From the IMG/VR virus record IMGVR_UViG_3300027533_000028, positions 1-49,256 of that record: 49,256 bases of DNA, one strand, 5' to 3'. Position numbers and translations under genes: made by a program. The notes under the pieces are model-generated. The model worked only from the letters and a program-made list of their open reading frames with translations. It searched no databases and was not told where the DNA came from. This document shows positions 19,306-49,256 of the stretch, one piece after another (positions within the stretch are counted from its first letter, which is position 1; each line of letters opens with the position of its first letter). The DNA is from a virus (Duplodnaviria > Caudoviricetes).

Positions 19306-19519
19306 AAAGTTCGATAAATTGTTCAGTTGTTTTATACTCTAATTTATTTCCGTTCCACCATAAACCATCATCTTTAAAATAAGTCCATCCTGAAAAAGTT
19401 GCCATAAATTCGGCAAAGGATTTCATCTCCTCTTTTGTTGCTTCCGTACACGCCCTTACTATATCATCAGAATCGTATAGATCAACGGCTTTATAAATTT
19501 TCTGTTCTACTTTTTTCAT
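19289..19519 (-). CDS. Hypothetical protein
   Basis: 76 aa, overlapping neighbours. Confidence 0.6.
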   Translation of the reverse strand: MKKVEQKIYKAVDLYDSDDIVRACTEATKEEMKSFAEFMATFSGWTYFKDDGLWWNGNKLEYKTTEQFIELYEQTN

Positions 19520-34352: not shown

Positions 34353-34366
34353 ATTTTTTATTTTTT

Positions 34367-34401
34367 AAAAAGGGGAGGAAGAACTACTGAACCTCCCCCT
34401 T
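34367..34401 (-). terminator. Intrinsic terminator after the major capsid gene
   Basis: Minus strand GGGGAGG...CCTCCCC followed by TTTTT. Confidence 0.75.
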
Positions 34402-34426
34402 AACCCTGAAAAATCCCAAATAAATA

Positions 34427-37011: not shown

Positions 37012-37097
37012 GGGAATCGAATTTTTGTAAAAGTATTAAAATAATTGAATTGTGCAAATGTTGATAAAAATATTTTATTAACATTGAAATAGTTGTT

Positions 37098-37172
37098 TAT
37101 ATTTGCATCGCTGTTTTATAGGTTAGGTTTTCATAGGTTAGTCCCCTTCGTTGCTCGCGAGGGGGATTTTTT
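37098..37172 (+). ncRNA. Putative small RNA (promoter + terminator)
   Basis: TATATTTG at 37098-37105; 2x ATAGGTTAG; terminator TCCCCTTCG / CGAGGGGGA + TTTTTT. Confidence 0.55.
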
Positions 37173-37174
37173 AT

Positions 37175-37278
37175 TATATTTGCAGTATAAACACTTTGTC
37201 CGAAGTGAATCAAAACATTTTATAAAGCCTACGTTGAAACTTGCGGACACAAGGAGTAAGCGTAGGTTTATTTTTTTT
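37175..37278 (+). promoter_or_regulatory. Promoter plus attenuator-like leader of the HNH gene
   Basis: TATATTTG at 37175-37182; stem AAGCCTACG / CGTAGGTTT + T-tract; inner loop CGGACA complementary to upstream TGTCCG. Confidence 0.55.
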
Positions 37279-37839
37279 ATGCAAACAAAAATTGAATTTA
37301 AGAATGAAATTTGGAAGGAAGTTGAAAACTTTGAGGGTAGATACGAAATAAGTAATTTCGGTAGGATTAAATCCATTGGCGGAAAGTTTTTGAAAGAAAC
37401 TATTTTAAAAACGTGTATTGATAGTGTTGGTTATTTTAAAACCACATTACGAAAAAAGCCATTGAAAAAACATCAGCGTATTCATGTTTTAGTTGCTGAA
37501 CATTTTTTGATTAAGCCGGATATTAAAAATGTTTGTGTTAATCACAAAGACGGTAATAAATTAAATAATCATGTTGATAATTTAGAATGGACTGATTTAA
37601 AAAATAATTGCCTCCATGCTTTACAAACCGGATTGTTTAATTTGAAAGGAGAAAATCATCCGCATAGTAAATTAACAAATGAAGCTGTTTATCATATTAA
37701 ATTTAATTCTAAAAATTTAACTAATACCGAAATTGCGAATTTGTTTTCAATGTCAAGACGGCAAATAAGGGATATTAGAAAAGGCGTGCATTGGAAGCAC
37801 ATAACAAAAGACTACAAACCCAATCTTTCAATTTCATAA
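37279..37839 (+). CDS. NUMOD4-HNH homing endonuclease
   Basis: Start MQTK at 37279; EIWKEV...YEISNFGRIKS (NUMOD4), VNHKDGNKLNNHVDNLEW (HNH), C-terminal HTH; opposite strand, overlaps the 3' end of the minor head gene. Confidence 0.9.
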   Translation: MQTKIEFKNEIWKEVENFEGRYEISNFGRIKSIGGKFLKETILKTCIDSVGYFKTTLRKKPLKKHQRIHVLVAEHFLIKPDIKNVCVNHKDGNKLNNHVDNLEWTDLKNNCLHALQTGLFNLKGENHPHSKLTNEAVYHIKFNSKNLTNTEIANLFSMSRRQIRDIRKGVHWKHITKDYKPNLSIS

Positions 37840-40988: not shown

Positions 40989-41960
40989 TTACATTTCACT
41001 TATTAACGAATTATTGCACCACCATCTTTCGGGATATTTCATATCTGCCAAAGTAATTTCTTCGCCTCTTTCCCTTTTATTTCTTAATTGCCGGAGATTA
41101 AAATAATTCCATTGCGGTTGTGAGTTCTTTTGTGTCGCAATTTCTACCATGATATGAGAAGCGTCTTTATTCGCTACTGCGCTGTAAATACTCCGTTGCA
41201 TCCCGAACATTTTTAACACTTGCGAATATCTTTCTTTACCCATCATCACATCATTACGGATCATTTTGGTATCGTTCAAATGATCGTTACTTTCATAAGT
41301 CAGCATTCTTTTATCATAGTAAAAAGAATATCCATGCCTGCCAACCCTGATCCCGAATGATTGATCTTCGTAACCAATGCCATCAGTTAAACAATCAAAG
41401 CCATTAACAACCAAACCCGCTTCTAATGGAATGCAGAATGAGCAACCATATAATTGATTTCCTGTAACTTTTGCTTTTTGATTATCAGGAGCTGCAGCCC
41501 AACGTGAATCATTACTTTCAAGTTCAAACGAAATCATTTTACCATCTTCAACAATCGGTTTATTGACTTTTTTATAAGCACCTAAAGCAATGTAATTATT
41601 ATTAGCCGCTTCGATTGCCGCCTCCAACCATCTGGCACCCAATACAGAGACATCATCGCAAAAAGCAATGTACGGATGTATCGCATAAACAAAGCCAGTA
41701 TTTCTTGCATTTGCAGCAGCGTAGTAAGGTTCTTTTGTAACCTGATGTTTACCCTGCCAAACTGATGGAAGCGGTGTGATATGTGAAGTAACAATGTTTA
41801 AATCATTGCTTAAATCAATACTTCTTTCTTCTGCCCAATAATCAACGACAATTAACTGCATAGGAAAATCAGGAAACAATTTCCTTTGATTTTTCAACCC
41901 ATCCCAAAACCATTGGAAGGGGTTGTTTCTGCGGCACGTTATGTAGACTATTGAAATCAT
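40989..41960 (-). CDS. GT2-like glycosyltransferase
   Basis: IVVD, AANARNTG, FCDD (DxD-like), NGFD...GYED motifs. Confidence 0.8.
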   Translation of the reverse strand: MISIVYITCRRNNPFQWFWDGLKNQRKLFPDFPMQLIVVDYWAEERSIDLSNDLNIVTSHITPLPSVWQGKHQVTKEPYYAAANARNTGFVYAIHPYIAFCDDVSVLGARWLEAAIEAANNNYIALGAYKKVNKPIVEDGKMISFELESNDSRWAAAPDNQKAKVTGNQLYGCSFCIPLEAGLVVNGFDCLTDGIGYEDQSFGIRVGRHGYSFYYDKRMLTYESNDHLNDTKMIRNDVMMGKERYSQVLKMFGMQRSIYSAVANKDASHIMVEIATQKNSQPQWNYFNLRQLRNKRERGEEITLADMKYPERWWCNNSLISEM

Positions 41961-42196
41961 GAACGATCTAACAAAATAAATTCCCTTGTAAATATTTTTT
42001 TATGGTCGGATATTACTCCTGAAAATTCATAAACAGGCTCTAAAGTTATTTTTAATTCACCATAGGGAATATATCCTTTTCCTATAAATTCTTTTACCTC
42101 TTTATTGAATTGGTAATCGTTTCCAGAAATTAAAACATAATCATCAATTGCTATGTCTAATTTAATATTATTCAAATGTGCCGCTACTGTTTTCAT
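41957..42196 (-). CDS. Hypothetical protein (DUF1737-like)
   Basis: FNKEVKEFIGKGYIPYG motif. Confidence 0.45.
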   Translation of the reverse strand: MKTVAAHLNNIKLDIAIDDYVLISGNDYQFNKEVKEFIGKGYIPYGELKITLEPVYEFSGVISDHKKIFTREFILLDRS

Positions 42197-42200
42197 ATTT

Positions 42201-42947
42201 TTATTTTATCGAAACATCAGGTTGATTAAAATAGTTATTCCATAATTTAAACAGGGTGTCGCGCCTGTCAGATTCTAAAATCCAGTCTTTAACCTTGATA
42301 GATGGATTATTAAAAGGGTGTTTAAAGGTTGTGTTTTTATCATCAATTATCCCCCATTTACGGGTATAATAATCGCGGTTATAAATTTCCGTCTGCTCAA
42401 TCATTGCCACATAATTAAGATTGTGCGGGTACGGTTTGCCATGTTTTATTTTAACAGGCTTTGTAATGTTATAAGGTTTGCCGCCTCCAACCCAAAACCT
42501 CATTCTCATTTCCCAATCTTCGTAATAAATAGGATAAAAGTTTTCATCAAATGTTCCGAAGTTCTTTACTCCGTTTCGTGTCCAGACAAAAATATCAAAG
42601 GCATTATTTTTATCAACGTAAATAATATCGGCATCTTTATGGTGCAAATCTGATTCTTTACAGATGGTTTCTAAAACTCCAGGTTGTAAATCCTGGTCCT
42701 CATTACAAATCAACCAGGCATCATCAATAAATATTTCAGGTGCAAGATTCCATGCACCCGCACAACCGAGATTGTAAGGTGAATCAATTATCCGCCATTC
42801 GGGATTTTTATCATTCCATTCATCCAAAGCCCCCTTTTTACCATTGTTAATAATAACTTTATATTCTATCGGGTAGTCAATAGAGTTTGCTAACCTGTTT
42901 AAAAGGTTCAAATCAAGAGCGAGTGAAGGAACTAACATGCTATTCAT
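42201..42947 (-). CDS. GT2-like glycosyltransferase
   Basis: NLGCAGAWN, CNEDQD, FDENFYPIYYEDWEMRMR. Confidence 0.82.
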   Translation of the reverse strand: MNSMLVPSLALDLNLLNRLANSIDYPIEYKVIINNGKKGALDEWNDKNPEWRIIDSPYNLGCAGAWNLAPEIFIDDAWLICNEDQDLQPGVLETICKESDLHHKDADIIYVDKNNAFDIFVWTRNGVKNFGTFDENFYPIYYEDWEMRMRFWVGGGKPYNITKPVKIKHGKPYPHNLNYVAMIEQTEIYNRDYYTRKWGIIDDKNTTFKHPFNNPSIKVKDWILESDRRDTLFKLWNNYFNQPDVSIK

Positions 42948-43570
42948 ATCGTCAATTCTGTATCTTTTTGGTTTACTAATCTTGGTAAAACTGTATAAAC
43001 TTTACATTTCGGATAAACTTCGTAAAACAGTAAAACATCAATCGGTTGTGAAGCATCCCTGCAATTTTCAAGTAAAACAGGAATCGCTTTTTTGGCAACG
43101 ATTAAAGCATGAGTGCAAAGCGGATATTTAACCTCATAAACATTTTCATTTACATGCGTTGTTTCCCTGCCTTCAGTACAGCAATTGCCCAATGAAAGAA
43201 AATCGAAATCTTTGGGAACATAATCTAAAGCTACCTCTAAATTATGCTTCCAATTATCACGAAACATACAATCATCTTCAATAATCATCCAGTACTCAAT
43301 TTCGGGATGTGATGCCATGACCGTATAAAGCAAATAATGCGATATGGTGCATCCTGTATTTCTTTGAGGTTGCAAGTAGTCTGAATCAGGCGAATCTCTC
43401 TTGTAAGCCCTGCATGATGTTATTCCGAACTTTTCAGCACCTATACCTGCAACTTCCATTACATGATAAATACCGATTTCAGAAAGATGGTTTTTAATAT
43501 AACTATACTTCTCCCCGACCTCAGGAAGATAAAGCAAAATTGGTTTTATGTCGTAACCTGATAATATCAT
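42944..43570 (-). CDS. GT25-like glycosyltransferase (LgtB/Lex family)
   Basis: GCTISHYLLY, IIEDD, THALIV, PIDV; start reassigned to 43570 (ATGA overlap). Confidence 0.8.
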   Translation of the reverse strand: MILSGYDIKPILLYLPEVGEKYSYIKNHLSEIGIYHVMEVAGIGAEKFGITSCRAYKRDSPDSDYLQPQRNTGCTISHYLLYTVMASHPEIEYWMIIEDDCMFRDNWKHNLEVALDYVPKDFDFLSLGNCCTEGRETTHVNENVYEVKYPLCTHALIVAKKAIPVLLENCRDASQPIDVLLFYEVYPKCKVYTVLPRLVNQKDTELTI

Positions 43571-44175
43571 CTTACTTTCCTGTGTATCTGCCAAGTTTCA
43601 TAATCTTCAACTAACTCCAAACCATAATCGGGTAATTTTGAGTAGGCTGTTTTTACCTCTTTCCAATGAGTGTCATCAGCTATCCAATACCCCCCGATTT
43701 TAACTTTTGGAATCCAATGATTTAACTCTGCTATTATGGTGCTTTCATTGTGTGATGAATCTTCATGTAAAACATCAATAGTATTATTTGCAAAAATAAA
43801 TGAAGCGTAATCGGTTCGTGAGCGGAAGGTGTCGCAGAAATCCTGAACCCTGTTTTTAAATATTTCTTTCTGGCAGCAATCATAGATGTATTTGAAATCA
43901 ACTGATTTATACCATTCATCATTTGCCTCTGAATTTTCGGGAGATAAACAGGCATCTACTTTCCATGCGTCAATTCCTAAAGCGAAACCCGAATTTTTTT
44001 CTTTGTGAGCCAATGCCATCGGAATAAGTGAACGACCTCCCCATGTTCCGAGTTCAACTGTAAATTGAGAATTGGTGTCAATAATTAATTGGTAGATGCG
44101 CTCCGCCTTTTCTGCGGTACACCATCCTTCCATCTGATTTATAATCGGGGCTAAGTTTATTTTCTCTGCAATCAT
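43567..44175 (-). CDS. Class I SAM-dependent methyltransferase (Methyltransf_24-like)
   Basis: VELGTWGGRS, IDAW, IDVLHEDSSH, GGYWIADD. Confidence 0.82.
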   Translation of the reverse strand: MIAEKINLAPIINQMEGWCTAEKAERIYQLIIDTNSQFTVELGTWGGRSLIPMALAHKEKNSGFALGIDAWKVDACLSPENSEANDEWYKSVDFKYIYDCCQKEIFKNRVQDFCDTFRSRTDYASFIFANNTIDVLHEDSSHNESTIIAELNHWIPKVKIGGYWIADDTHWKEVKTAYSKLPDYGLELVEDYETWQIHRKVR

Positions 44176-44438
44176 CTTTTGTTAATTTTATCAATAATGA
44201 CCTCGATTAACATTTTAATGTTAGCTTCTTCTGATTCTGATGTTAAATTGTTTCTGTCTACTAACATTTCTACGCTTTCAAGTTGTTCAGGGTAATTATC
44301 TGACTTTCCTAATTGTATTTTTTTGAATCCATCTAATCTGTATTTTACAACATTATTTCCACTATCATAAATATTTAATGTAAAATATACTTCATTCGTA
44401 TTTAATAAATCCAATAATGTTTTTCTCATTTTTTCCAA
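44172..44438 (-). CDS. Hypothetical protein
   Basis: 88 aa overlapping both neighbours. Confidence 0.55.
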   Translation of the reverse strand: MEKMRKTLLDLLNTNEVYFTLNIYDSGNNVVKYRLDGFKKIQLGKSDNYPEQLESVEMLVDRNNLTSESEEANIKMLIEVIIDKINKR

Positions 44439-45184
44439 TCTTTATGAGCTAACCAAACATCAAACGAACTGTGATAAGGGTAGTAAAGCAAAACATCTTC
44501 AGGATAAAAAAATCTTTTTTTACCATCAAATGAAATAACCTGGTAATCCATTTCAAAAATGTATTCTACGAAATCCCAAATTTTATCCCCTATCAATTCA
44601 ATCTGATTTGAAAACTCGCACATGATGACAGGTTTGTATTTTTTAATCGTTTCTTTTGAACCTTTTAAAATCCGAAGTTCGTAACCATCAGCATCTAATT
44701 TTATGAAGTCAATGGTATTGAGTTTTTTTGCCCCTACTTCTTTAACAAAAGAAAAGTAATTGTCGAGTGTCGCAAATTCAACTTTAAAGCCTTCTTTGCC
44801 CTTATAATCTACAGCAATGTTAATATCATCAGTTCCGTCATTGTCTTTTAAAGTCCATGAGGAGAAAACGGTTTGGTTTTCTTTAATATAATCTTTATCG
44901 GATAAAGCGATATTGTTTAATAAAACTCTGCTATCATTTTTAAACTTTTCATAAAGCGAATTGAAAACATCAGGAACCGGTTCGAAGCAATGAATTTCTT
45001 TAAATCCTTTTTCCAAAAACATTTCAGTATACCCGCCTAAGTTTGCACCAATATCTAAAGCAACTGTATTTTTATAGCGGTCAATTATCTGATTAAAAAA
45101 ATCATAGCCGGTTCCAAATAAAGTATTTTCTGAAAGATTCAGGGTAGCAAGTTTTTCTGCAGCAGTTAATTCTTTGGGTGTCAT
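44426..45184 (-). CDS. FkbM-family methyltransferase
   Basis: LDIGANLG, CFEP, TLD, IDFIKLDADGYE...LKG. Confidence 0.88.
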   Translation of the reverse strand: MTPKELTAAEKLATLNLSENTLFGTGYDFFNQIIDRYKNTVALDIGANLGGYTEMFLEKGFKEIHCFEPVPDVFNSLYEKFKNDSRVLLNNIALSDKDYIKENQTVFSSWTLKDNDGTDDINIAVDYKGKEGFKVEFATLDNYFSFVKEVGAKKLNTIDFIKLDADGYELRILKGSKETIKKYKPVIMCEFSNQIELIGDKIWDFVEYIFEMDYQVISFDGKKRFFYPEDVLLYYPYHSSFDVWLAHKDWKK

Positions 45185-47076
45185 GCTTCTACAGGTTTTT
45201 CGCTATTACATTCGACTAAATTCTGCAGCAACATTTCATCGGTAACGGTTAATCTTCGAATCTCGAAATCATTGTTTCCGAAGAAAACTTCCCAAGTGTT
45301 TTGGGTTCTGATTTGCCCTCCAGGAAACACAACATAAATTCGGGAATCTAATCGCGGGATATTAATATTAATTTTCTCCCCTGCGATTATCGGTTGTTTA
45401 GAAATATGCGTTACGTTAAAAGGAGGTTTGTTTTCAAACATATAAGCTCCGATAAAATATTGCCGTTCTTTTGTCGGCATGTCGAGCGATGAATGAAAGA
45501 AAGATAGATAATGTTCACCAACTAAAACGGGCGAAGTTCCGCCTCTTAATATTCCCCATTTCCACTCATGCGGAAATCTTGTTTCATGTGCTGTTTTCCA
45601 TTCCTGCCCGTTCATCTTTAAAATCGTATGCGGGAAGATTTGATAAACAGAGTAAAGTTCATTTTCATATTCAAAGAAAGTCCAATTCTTTTCAGTTCGG
45701 TCTTTATTAGGCTTATAGATATAAAAACTTTCTGTTGCCTGTAATGTTTCGGAGTTTATTTTAGCCTGTCCCATTTGGTAACCATCGCAGTATGATAAAT
45801 AAAGTTCATCATTAAAGATAAATAAACGCGGGTCTTCCACATGAAAACCTTTTGCATATTTCCGTAAATCAGAATGTAAATTTAAAAGTACATTTGTTGA
45901 TCTGATGGGTTGTAAATTATCATCCAATAAACACAAACCTAATTTAGTCGTTACACAAAACGGCTTTGATTCCATGCGGTAACAGAAATATTTTTTGCCT
46001 TTATATTCGATTGCTGAACCATTAAGCCAGTTAGAAACATTTAAAGTCCTGCGGTTCGGGTTTTCGTACTGCTGAATTAATTGAGTAGAATCAATTTTAA
46101 CTGTATTTTTAATCGGGTAGAATTGCGGGAATGTTGTCGGGCTAAGTTTCCCTCTTTTAGCATTGCTGTTATCATTAAAAGTTGAAACGAGCATCGGGTT
46201 TTTAGCATCTGCATGTTTGCCTGATGTAATATCATCAAACTTATAACATCGATTCATGCCTAATGGTCTGGTGTATTTTTTAATAATCAACCTGTCGTAT
46301 AAATCCCTATATGCAGGCTTTGTAAATCTTGCTCCTCCAAATACACATAAAATAAAATGCTGTTCTGCAATTACCCTATCCCCCCTTACCATATCTGTTT
46401 TATTCGCTAAAAATAACGCATCATTTCCTATGTGAGTATCTTTAATCTTAAGTTGAGCAAGTGAACCGGCTAAATAAAGTTCATCGGGTTGATTGCCTCC
46501 CCATTGGTAGCGGAGTTCATGTAATGGTATCGGGTTAGAAATGTTTTTTAAAATTAATTTATAAAGGCTTTCTGATGCTTCACATTTTTCAATAAACTGA
46601 ATGGAAGATTGCGGAGCCGGTAAAAAAGAATCTGATTTTAAATCAAAATGCTCCCATGCTTTTGAACGGTAAGCCCAAAGCAAATAACCCATATCATCAG
46701 GATCTGTTGAATAATAAGTATTGTATAGGTATGTTAAATAATGTTTCCCTGATGCGATACATCTATCTATCAATGGTTGAATGTTTTGAAATGCAAGCGC
46801 ATCCACATCTAAAACCAAATTGTAATCATATGGTAAATAATTATAAATTGAAACTTTAACTTTTGCAGGGTTGCTTAAATCGGTTTCATCTAATAAAACC
46901 TCTTTATCAAAGAAACTCATATCATAATAACCACGCTGAAATACCTTGCCATCATGCAGCACACAAATTTGGATGTTCCTGTCGAAGTGTTTGAGGGAAA
47001 TTGCCAAGTTGTATGCCGCACGAGCATAGCAAGGATCGCCAAAGGCAATCATAAAGATTCCGTTGGTTTTACTCAT
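45181..47076 (-). CDS. Bifunctional GT-A glycosyltransferase + five-bladed beta-propeller (GH130/GT91/GT108-like) protein
   Basis: N-terminal LVLDVD (DxD); C-terminal NGS...YR, EDPRLF, EKNWTFF, RGGTSP, FFHS, VVFPGG. Confidence 0.75.
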   Translation of the reverse strand: MSKTNGIFMIAFGDPCYARAAYNLAISLKHFDRNIQICVLHDGKVFQRGYYDMSFFDKEVLLDETDLSNPAKVKVSIYNYLPYDYNLVLDVDALAFQNIQPLIDRCIASGKHYLTYLYNTYYSTDPDDMGYLLWAYRSKAWEHFDLKSDSFLPAPQSSIQFIEKCEASESLYKLILKNISNPIPLHELRYQWGGNQPDELYLAGSLAQLKIKDTHIGNDALFLANKTDMVRGDRVIAEQHFILCVFGGARFTKPAYRDLYDRLIIKKYTRPLGMNRCYKFDDITSGKHADAKNPMLVSTFNDNSNAKRGKLSPTTFPQFYPIKNTVKIDSTQLIQQYENPNRRTLNVSNWLNGSAIEYKGKKYFCYRMESKPFCVTTKLGLCLLDDNLQPIRSTNVLLNLHSDLRKYAKGFHVEDPRLFIFNDELYLSYCDGYQMGQAKINSETLQATESFYIYKPNKDRTEKNWTFFEYENELYSVYQIFPHTILKMNGQEWKTAHETRFPHEWKWGILRGGTSPVLVGEHYLSFFHSSLDMPTKERQYFIGAYMFENKPPFNVTHISKQPIIAGEKININIPRLDSRIYVVFPGGQIRTQNTWEVFFGNNDFEIRRLTVTDEMLLQNLVECNSEKPVEA

Positions 47077-47637: not shown

Positions 47638-47670
47638 TTAATTAAAATTATTAATATTAAAAACTTAGTA

Positions 47671-47743
47671 TTTGCTTTTTAAAATGCCTGCAAAATTTCC
47701 GGCAACAATTTCAGTTTTGGGTATGCTAACTGACAAAAGCAAC
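47671..47743 (-). ncRNA. Array of two tandem H-type pseudoknots in the tail-tube leader
   Basis: Units 47743-47711 and 47706-47671; the first shares the TACCCAA loop with capsid unit 1. Confidence 0.7.
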
Positions 47744-47787: not shown

Positions 47788-47795
47788 CAAATGTA
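47788..47795 (-). promoter_or_regulatory. Bacteroidota -7 promoter box (TACATTTG)
   Basis: Matches the TAnnTTTG consensus upstream of the tail-tube leader. Confidence 0.55.
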
Positions 47796-48170: not shown

Positions 48171-49256
48171 TTATGTATTCCTAAAGAATTTAACATCTGT
48201 ATCTTTTAACTGAACATTGAATGAACAGGATGCAAGTTTTGATTCCCCTGCTGCATTCCACTTCGGTATCAAATCTCCTGATATTGCAAGCCATTCTGTA
48301 AATGTTCCTGTCGGTTCGCCAATTTCAAAATGTTCACAATTTCGCTGCGTCCGTAAAGCATCTATACAACCTTCGGAAATGTGTTCGGTAATTATCTGAT
48401 AAACCTTTTCTACCTGTGAAAAGTTTCTTGATTTCGTGCCTTCGGAATAAAGGTAATCATCATTTTCCTCTTTGCCCTGCGGATTGATTGCGCGAATGTA
48501 AATACGTTGCGAAAGTTTAAATACATAAGCGGTTAAATCCACATCATAGAAACGGAAACCTAAATTATCTTCAAAGCAATACGCCTGAATCATCTTTGTG
48601 CATTCTGCCTGACTTTCTGCGATGTATTCAATACATTGAGATAAATAAGTTACATCAAAAGGTTCAATTCTACGAACAGAAACATTATCAATATTAACAG
48701 AGCCGATTGTATTTAAGAATTGAGCAACAACACTAAACCATGCTCTTTGCGGAGAGGTAAAGTCGGGGTTGAAAGAAATATCTACCGTATAACTTCCCAC
48801 AGGTGTAGAGCCTTGCGGAAACGGTACGGGAAACGGTCTTTGGTAACCACCTAAAACATTGACCGTAATATTTGCAGGATCATCATTTACTGTAATGTCA
48901 AAACTAACGCGGTAGTTATGAGGACCGGATAATATTGCAGGATTGTTCTGAAAGTTAAATGTTCCGTCAGTTCCTAAATAAAGGTTTGCTATTGTAGCGG
49001 TATGAGTTCCCACTATCCCTATTGTTACTACTAACTCATTGCCTACTACGGTAACATTTGAGCCTGATGTCTGCATCCAATAAACTCCCATTGGCGCAGA
49101 AAATCCGCCATCTACAATAATTTCTTCAAACTGAATATCGCAACGGTCATAAGCATAAATGTAATAACATCCGTTAGGTATTGCATGATCGTTATCATCT
49201 AATGTTGTATCGAACTTAAAAGAGAGTGTAACAAAATCTTCCGAATAAATTACTCT
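48171..49256 (-). CDS. Tail protein, 3' part of the junction-spanning gene (begins at 1388)
   Basis: Frame open from 49256 through 49091 to the stop at 48171. Confidence 0.8.
   Translation of the reverse strand, partial: RVIYSEDFVTLSFKFDTTLDDNDHAIPNGCYYIYAYDRCDIQFEEIIVDGGFSAPMGVYWMQTSGSNVTVVGNELVVTIGIVGTHTATIANLYLGTDGTFNFQNNPAILSGPHNYRVSFDITVNDDPANITVNVLGGYQRPFPVPFPQGSTPVGSYTVDISFNPDFTSPQRAWFSVVAQFLNTIGSVNIDNVSVRRIEPFDVTYLSQCIEYIAESQAECTKMIQAYCFEDNLGFRFYDVDLTAYVFKLSQRIYIRAINPQGKEENDDYLYSEGTKSRNFSQVEKVYQIITEHISEGCIDALRTQRNCEHFEIGEPTGTFTEWLAISGDLIPKWNAAGESKLASCSFNVQLKDTDVKFFRNT
49204..49256. repeat. Terminal direct repeat / circular overlap, right copy
   Basis: 50/53 identity to positions 1-53. 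Confidence 0.9.

Follow-up and report, generated by a model that had tools for sequence, protein, structure and literature searches.

Tandem, position-locked pseudoknots form a conserved RNA family before the capsid and probable tail tube genes of uncultured phages

The intergenic leaders of the predicted major capsid gene and of a probable tail tube gene in the phage genome analyzed here (hereafter the window, a whole virus record of 49,256 nt on one contig) contain H-type RNA pseudoknots that belong to a family conserved in a wide clade of uncultured phages. Both stems of these elements covary, their distance from the downstream ATG is fixed, and they occur in genomes in which Shine–Dalgarno (SD) motifs are missing; the conservation extends to phages in which capsid protein identity has dropped to about one quarter. 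With respect to function, we tentatively favor a role as SD-independent docking (standby) sites for the 30S subunit or ribosomal protein bS1, through which the translation of abundant virion proteins would be raised. The source of very high translation rates without SD pairing in Bacteroidota and their phages is a still-open question, on which an element that is small, modular, locked in position before the most abundant virion proteins, and easily mutated may bear. As enhancers, if that is what they are, the pseudoknots would offer a small expression part for engineering Bacteroidota; under a different mechanism they would still constitute a structured-RNA family that marks the late structural genes of an uncultured phage clade, whose capsid and 186-aa proteins are themselves without a Pfam or PHROG match.

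Within the window, two units (PK4 and PK5) precede the 186-aa open reading frame and three (PK1 to PK3) precede the 368-aa open reading frame, the leader being in both cases a 168-nt intergenic region (Table 1). PK4 and PK5 had been proposed on the minus strand in the original prediction, and they parsed exactly as described there. All five units follow the H-type order S1-L1-S2-(L2)-S1′-L3-S2′, with an L2 of 0–1 nt, such that coaxial stacking of the two stems is possible. The proposed kinship of PK4 with PK1 is borne out as well, and the arrays are paralogous: the 11-mer GCATACCCAAA is present in exactly two copies in the window, one in PK1 and one in PK4, and each of these units is followed by AATTGTT. 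Specifically, stem 1 of PK1 and stem 1 of PK4 differ by one two-sided, compensatory change (C-G vs U-A), and their stem 2 sequences are unrelated yet completely paired in each, as had been claimed.

A strict descriptor, which demanded a GT prefix and Watson–Crick pairs only, was run over both strands of the 49,256 nt and gave 10 matches genome-wide. Half of these (5/10) fall inside the two 168-nt leaders, and this concentration within two short regions indicates that the arrays exceed chance. Nested folding of the tube leader yielded an MFE of -22.9 kcal/mol and a z of -0.02 vs shuffles, the method being uninformative for short pseudoknots.

Table 1. Positions of the leader elements, neighboring genes and other features of the window
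Feature	Position	Strand	Description
Candidate sixth unit	8206-8177	minus	GU, 4-bp stem 1, 7-nt loop 3; stem 2 of 5-6 bp with one bulged A; found by eye
Hairpin	34353-34426	minus	7 bp, G+C-rich, 13-nt loop, T-run; directly 3′ of the capsid gene
Predicted major capsid protein gene, 368 aa	34427..35533	minus	ESM Atlas structural match
PK3, capsid array	35599-35566	minus	Ends 32 nt before the capsid ATG
PK2, capsid array	35640-35604	minus	Descriptor match
PK1, capsid array	35683-35650	minus	Loop 3 UACCCAA; paralogous to PK4
HNH homing endonuclease gene	37093-37839	plus	Only sizeable plus-strand gene
Glycosylation/methylation cassette	40989..47076	minus	Directly after the 186-aa gene
Probable tail tube gene, 186 aa	47077..47637	minus	ESM Atlas leads
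Linker from PK5 to ATG	47638..47670	minus	33 nt, A/U-rich, without Shine–Dalgarno motif
PK5, H-type pseudoknot	47706-47671	minus	Stem 1 UGCC/GGCA (4 bp), 5-bp stem 2; one unpaired A; U/A-rich loop 3 of 9 nt
PK4, H-type pseudoknot	47743-47711	minus	GU, 4-bp stem 1 UGCU/AGCA, 4-nt loop 1; 6-bp stem 2, loop 3 UACCCAA
TAnnTTTG -7 promoter box, Bacteroidota-type	47788..47795	minus	Upstream of the tube-gene leader
Shared window ends	1-53 / 49204-49256		About 53 nt in common, with a few differences

In terms of the genes that these leaders serve, the 368-aa product had been put forward as the capsid protein, and this assignment is supported by a structural match in the ESM Atlas to the Phage_capsid_4 cluster (TM 0.60/0.68) that meets the service's naming bar. 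The gene also lies after a scaffold-like gene, and this synteny is conserved. On the strength of the structural match we regard the 368-aa protein, which has no sequence match in Pfam, PHROG or PDB, as the capsid protein. The 186-aa protein is likewise without a sequence match in these three collections, and a comparison of seven tube homologs with Pfam and PHROGs gave no match. The nearest named ESM Atlas clusters are Phage_TTP_16 (by features, 0.88) and Phage_TTP_17 (by structure, TM 0.55), both of them leads below the service's naming bar, and we consider the 186-aa protein to be probably the tail tube protein, a name taken solely from this structural lead. A tube protein is to be expected, since the phage encodes a tape-measure-like protein of 1117 aa that matches phrog_4211 (tape measure) with an E value of 5e-9.

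The motif had originally been reported only before the two genes just described. For the strict descriptor this remains the case; it does not extend to a weaker unit that was missed by the descriptor because of a bulge and that is separated by 29 nt from the start codon of the tape-measure-like gene (1117 aa; Table 1, candidate sixth unit). In a related genome, G002, the tape-measure homolog is preceded at 14 nt by a clean unit, and the stem 1 of this unit is identical to that of the capsid and tube units of the same genome. There is no intergenic space before the tape-measure homolog in G001, G003 and G005. In the window and in G002, the tape-measure gene is a probable third target of the pseudoknot leaders.

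The conservation of the leaders was examined in relatives gathered through the capsid protein. A search with this protein gave 8 relatives at E <= 0.001, and their alignment led to 29 metagenome and 27 IMG/VR loci; after duplicate removal, 37 capsid leaders were available, with capsid identities of 24–90%. A relaxed descriptor, derived from the window's own units and then tested on the other genomes (score of at least 23, region -170..-10, non-overlapping matches), found 32 pseudoknots in these leaders, with at least one in 24 of the 37 and no match at the chosen threshold in the other 13. Dinucleotide shuffles of the same 37 leaders (40 sets) gave 2.55 +/- 1.43 matches with a maximum of 6, and 6.8% of the shuffled leaders had a match. 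The suggested descriptor search thus turned out in favor of the motif, both in the window and in its relatives.

The same holds for the second placement. A homolog of the 186-aa protein was present in all 19 of the relatives' virus records that were searched, and 20 tube leaders could be assembled from these records and L087, with the window and L003 excluded. A strict form of the descriptor matched 7/20 of them vs 0.7 +/- 0.8 (maximum 3) in shuffles; the remaining 13 had no match at the chosen threshold. Most of these contain, by eye, a unit in which stem 2 has 4 bp, a bulge is present or L2 is longer, and weaker or bulged units can be read by eye in several of the unmatched leaders overall. 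The two placements persist down to a capsid identity of only 24–37%, which upholds the earlier claim that one type of pseudoknot precedes both genes. Gene order is conserved in the six genomes that are complete or nearly so, and G001 resembles the window in that ~11 kb separate its capsid gene from the tube homolog upstream. Two covariance models (2 and 5 seeds) returned mainly the seeds themselves, also when run with filters off on 40 short leaders, and a structural alignment of units whose loops vary is beyond MAFFT; we therefore relied on the descriptor with shuffle controls and on pair projection. As for the reach of the family, tblastn against GenBank phages gave no match for the capsid or the 186-aa protein, no cultured relatives were found, and the search of species genomes returned a single 4.9-kb MAG contig, which says nothing about the host.

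Support for the fold itself comes from covariation. In L005, whose capsid protein is 90% identical to that of the window, the three units are kept and the stem 2 sequences are entirely different; across the window, L005 and L006, the stem 2 sequences are unrelated and pairing is kept. For the tube leader, the closest relative is L003 (tube protein 85% identical), in which the first pair of PK5 stem 1 changes from U-A to A-U, one pair of PK5 stem 2 becomes U-G, and PK4 stem 2 shows one two-sided change from A-U to G-C. To quantify such changes, the pairs were projected onto MAFFT-aligned related leaders (nine groups, ordered pairs, each leader pair counted both ways). In register, the projection gave 281 unchanged cells, 55 two-sided and 36 one-sided changes that keep the pair, 62 broken cells, some of which are probably due to misalignment, and 44 gaps. 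When the 3′ partner was slid by 1–3 nt, the two-sided changes fell to 12–23 and the broken cells rose to 110–134, and both stems of the H-type fold covary by this measure. In the three-sequence alignment A13, 86% of cells pair vs 27–47% when slid, and in its helix 4, 96% of the cells are paired and 3/9 pairs are changed on both sides; the shuffle control for these three sequences (72 of 500) is not significant, and helix 1 was misaligned.

The need for G-U pairs further defines the nature of the element. At least one G-U pair is needed in 34/66 units from the window and its relatives (41/681 pairs), and on the other strand these positions would be C-A mismatches, from which it follows that the element is a sense-strand RNA. 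A DNA palindrome for a dimeric protein was discarded on this ground and in view of the stem 2 covariation, and also because the spacing of the stem 1 halves varies (loop 1 of 1–8 nt, stem 2 of 4–8 bp). Other candidates were rejected by eye: a long helix seen in the MFE fold, in which the 5′ part of PK4 pairs with the 3′ part of PK5, is lost in L003, and a leader peptide was discarded because the single ATG upstream, located in PK1, starts a frame of just 5 codons and the tube leader is without such a frame.

Across the 66 units, stem 1 is mostly 4–5 bp and starts with UG or AG in 41, and GU stands before stem 1, or as its first two bases, in 33. Loop 1 has 1–5 nt (up to 8 nt) and is 39% U. Stem 2 is mostly 5–7 bp, with no sequence preference, and L2 is absent in 45/66. 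L3 ranges from 3 to 10 nt and is composed of 46% A and 31% U, its first base being U in 36/66 units and its last base A in 38/66. Not one loop position is invariant among the 66 units. With respect to loops, the TACCCAA sequence had been singled out as a protein-binding unit, and this part of the original prediction does not stand: the sequence is lost both in L003 and in L005, and therefore cannot be a general recognition element.

The position of the units was scanned in 20 genomes after correction of start codons. In capsid leaders, the last unit ends 19–32 nt before the ATG in 17/20, the outliers being G005, G006 and G007 at 56–76 nt. In tube leaders, the last unit ends 19–33 nt before the ATG in 14/20; four more had no match, and two had only far-upstream matches that are probably spurious. 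For the window tube leader, the scan chose an overlapping alternative made of A and U only at -19, and the true PK5 ends 33 nt before the ATG. Arrays carry one to three units, and two or more were found in the capsid leaders of 17/20 genomes and the tube leaders of 3/20, counts in which some low-scoring matches may be spurious. The upstream units of an array lie 60–150 nt from the ATG.

This spacing can be compared with that of the promoter. TAnnTTTG is a -7 element conserved in Flavobacterium and Bacteroides, as described in PMC7641319. The box is present in 17/20 tube leaders, ending 62–83 nt before the ATG in 15 of these and 150 nt before it in the window. Over the whole window, 64 copies were found vs 74.6 expected, such that the motif is not enriched and a single box is not significant; the weight of this observation therefore lies on the fixed offset across relatives. 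Only 7/20 capsid leaders have the box, and the capsid units that lack it are accordingly taken to be internal to the operon. The spacing between unit and ATG is thus the same near the 5′ end of a primary transcript (tube) and inside an operon (capsid), and such independence of transcript context speaks more for an action in translation than for one at the transcript's 5′ end. In terms of the ribosome-binding site, SD-like 4-mers precede 2/55 window open reading frames, below the 11% background, and are similarly scarce in 4/5 other genomes tested. The TAnnTTTG box and the missing SD motifs together constitute expression signals of the Bacteroidota type. Bacteroidia ribosomes are reported not to recognize SD sequences (PMC6847099, PMC7797042), and initiation in this group is described as tuned by mRNA structure and upstream A residues (PMC6847099, PMC7797042, PMC9976891).

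Overall, a role in translation initiation fits these data best, because the distance to the ATG is fixed and independent of transcript context, the linker is unstructured and A/U-rich, and the elements are placed, in an SD-less setting, before the proteins that are most needed. What is shown of this putative standby site is its architecture, namely a pseudoknot, an unstructured A/U-rich linker and a fixed spacing to the ATG. A precedent is the tisB +42 mRNA of E. coli, in which a 5′ pseudoknot and an unstructured region together make up a standby site that S1/30S binds with high affinity (Romilly et al. 2020, PMC7708055). According to the account given there, the affinity of S1 for H-type pseudoknots is in the nanomolar range, and the 30S platform is where the rpsO pseudoknot docks. 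The likeness to tisB lies in an H-type pseudoknot of the 5′ leader that adjoins an unstructured region, S1/30S binding at this site being needed for translation (PMC7708055). The tisB element differs in that it is described as single and as lying ~100 nt upstream of a structured, SD-containing site in a toxin mRNA (PMC7708055), whereas the phage units are tandem, end 19–33 nt before an unstructured, SD-less start, precede virion genes, and are putative binding sites. An H-type pseudoknot was also obtained as an RNA ligand of ribosomal protein S1 by SELEX (Ringquist et al. 1995, cited in PMC7708055). As presented in the citing paper, this ligand resembles the phage units in being a small H-type pseudoknot that serves as a ribosome/S1 ligand without an SD sequence; it differs in being artificial, and the likeness is one of structural class.

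By analogy with these systems, the pseudoknot would hold the 30S subunit or bS1 beside the unstructured A/U-rich landing pad. The unit next to the start codon would dock on the 30S platform or bS1, and the further units of an array would serve as additional standby sites. We infer that the ribosome or bS1 is bound, that the effect is an enhancing one, and that more units would give more protein. One observation runs against docking, in that the upstream units of an array, given their distance from the ATG, are too far away to touch a ribosome at the start codon. A bolder version of the idea, which we hold to be doubtful, is that an IRES-like modular unit ~21 nt upstream of the start codon occupies the place of the SD helix on the 30S platform, and that one to three stacked units set the relative output of the tape-measure, tube and capsid genes. 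If this were true, stacked units would amount to a structural, copy-number-coded stoichiometry dial in phages of the SD-blind Bacteroidota. Stoichiometry control had already been suggested for these leaders, and what the present analysis adds in its favor is that capsid leaders usually have at least two units and tube leaders one, a difference that would be consistent with such control.

Docking of a generic kind leaves the partial conservation of the outer end of stem 1 unexplained, and this feature could mark a specific trans-acting factor. Along these lines, the pseudoknots might be operators at which a protein acting in trans, be it another phage product or a structural protein not yet assembled, represses or times the translation of capsid and tube genes in the manner of gp32; we judge this unlikely. 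The model for such control is T4 gene 32, a phage leader in which a pseudoknot with two coaxial stems is followed by an A+U-rich stretch (Uzan and Miller 2010, PMC3014915), and the architecture of the present leaders, with an unstructured A+U-rich stretch running from the pseudoknot to the ribosome-binding site, resembles that operator. As described in the same review, the gene 32 element is a single unit and the repressor operator for the ssDNA-binding protein encoded downstream (PMC3014915), whereas the window elements come in arrays of one to three and precede the capsid and probable tube genes, neither of which places them in the leader of an ssDNA-binding protein gene. A unit ending ~21 nt before the ATG could allow a bound protein to compete with the 30S subunit. 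Moreover, the capsid and tube leaders of one genome have clade-specific stem 1 signatures in common (G002, G003, G010, G014/G016), which would fit co-evolution with a binding protein; gene conversion, however, can also yield similarity within a genome. Further points against an operator are the variability of the loops in length and sequence, including the absence of a conserved TACCCAA, and the downstream genes, which do not encode nucleic-acid-binding proteins; no candidate RNA-binding protein was identified.

A different possibility is that the leaders act as mRNA stabilizers, which block 5′-end-dependent or exonucleolytic decay or mark a processing site, such that messages for the capsid and tube proteins persist longer than other parts of the operon. 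Mechanical stability would be expected of compact pseudoknots arranged in tandem, with loop 3 rich in A and loop 1 rich in U, and the capsid message would be bracketed by structures, given the hairpin with a T-run that follows the capsid gene (Table 1). This hairpin was left unscored in the terminator scan, because the loop limit of the scan is 8 nt. It also speaks against stabilization that the distance of the units is fixed to the ATG and not to the promoter box (150 nt in the window vs 62–83 nt in most relatives), and that the 13/20 capsid arrays without an upstream box would need an unproven cleavage. On balance we find stabilization slightly less likely than an operator, and return to ribosome docking as the reading that best accommodates the locked position.

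The put RNAs of phage HK022 are processive antiterminators, and cis elements of this type, acting on RNA polymerase, could provide read-through of long late operons. The tube-gene unit does stand at the start of a long operon, shortly after the promoter; the position of the units is locked to the start codon rather than to the promoter, however, and the capsid arrays are mostly internal to operons, which renders antitermination very improbable.

Least probable of all, to the point of near dismissal, are riboswitch aptamers for a small ligand of the kind found in the preQ1-I riboswitch (RF00522): members of this class are H-type pseudoknots of only ~34 nt that have an A-rich loop 3 and sometimes occur in tandem, and the phage units equal it in topology, size and A-rich loop 3, but they have no conserved ligand-binding loop or invariant loop nucleotides to form a pocket, L2 is mostly absent, and the downstream genes are structural, not metabolic. 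It is above all the lack of conserved loop positions that disfavors a riboswitch. The covariance model and the conserved contact nucleotides of preQ1-I likewise find no counterpart, the family being absent from the tube leader at E values up to 10.

More generally, Rfam 15 gave no match in the window at gathering thresholds, and under relaxed E values only chance-level matches appeared, far below gathering scores (tube leader, E 0.31–9.8; 40 leaders, E 0.44–0.48), with no meaningful family match in the window or the 40 leaders even at E values up to 1–10. Cis-regulatory candidates upstream of capsid genes are contained in a catalogue of viral csRNAs built on IMG/VR (PMC10690425), and one of them, DNAVirus_1925, is placed upstream of both HK97-type capsid and major tail genes (PMC10690425). 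The catalogue, as far as its descriptions go, differs from our approach in that targets are named by Pfam or COG domains, which are absent from the proteins considered here, and, with the comparison made by target descriptions only, its 10,006 unnamed candidates could already include the window motif (PMC10690425). A search of the full-text literature turned up no description of comparable leaders ahead of Bacteroidota phage capsid or tail genes. The leaders thus represent an undescribed, widely conserved and position-locked pseudoknot family, with the csRNA catalogue compared by its descriptions only.

Several further features of the window were recorded. As the original prediction had it, a glycosylation cassette follows the 186-aa gene, and it encodes a GH130-like domain, two methyltransferases and three glycosyltransferases. 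The cassette probably shares a transcript with the 186-aa gene and may glycosylate a virion protein; its content differs among relatives. The 186-aa protein and its homologs have a conserved, cysteine-rich N-terminus (M-A-N-C-x-N-Y-x-C), and the family alignment contains four invariant Cys columns, which is unusual in a tail tube protein. The rest of the genome being minus-strand, the one plus-strand gene of note sits within the head module, and its product is an HNH homing endonuclease (NUMOD4, E 1.5e-13; HNH_3, E 3.9e-6). Open reading frames run off both ends of the window, and the metagenome contig extends 70 nt beyond it; the sequence shared by the two ends (Table 1) reflects either a circularly permuted genome whose termini overlap or a repeat within a large tail gene. 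No tRNA gene is present in the window, and in the relative L065 (G001) a tRNA-Met gene (19325-19399, minus strand) lies immediately 3′ of the capsid gene.
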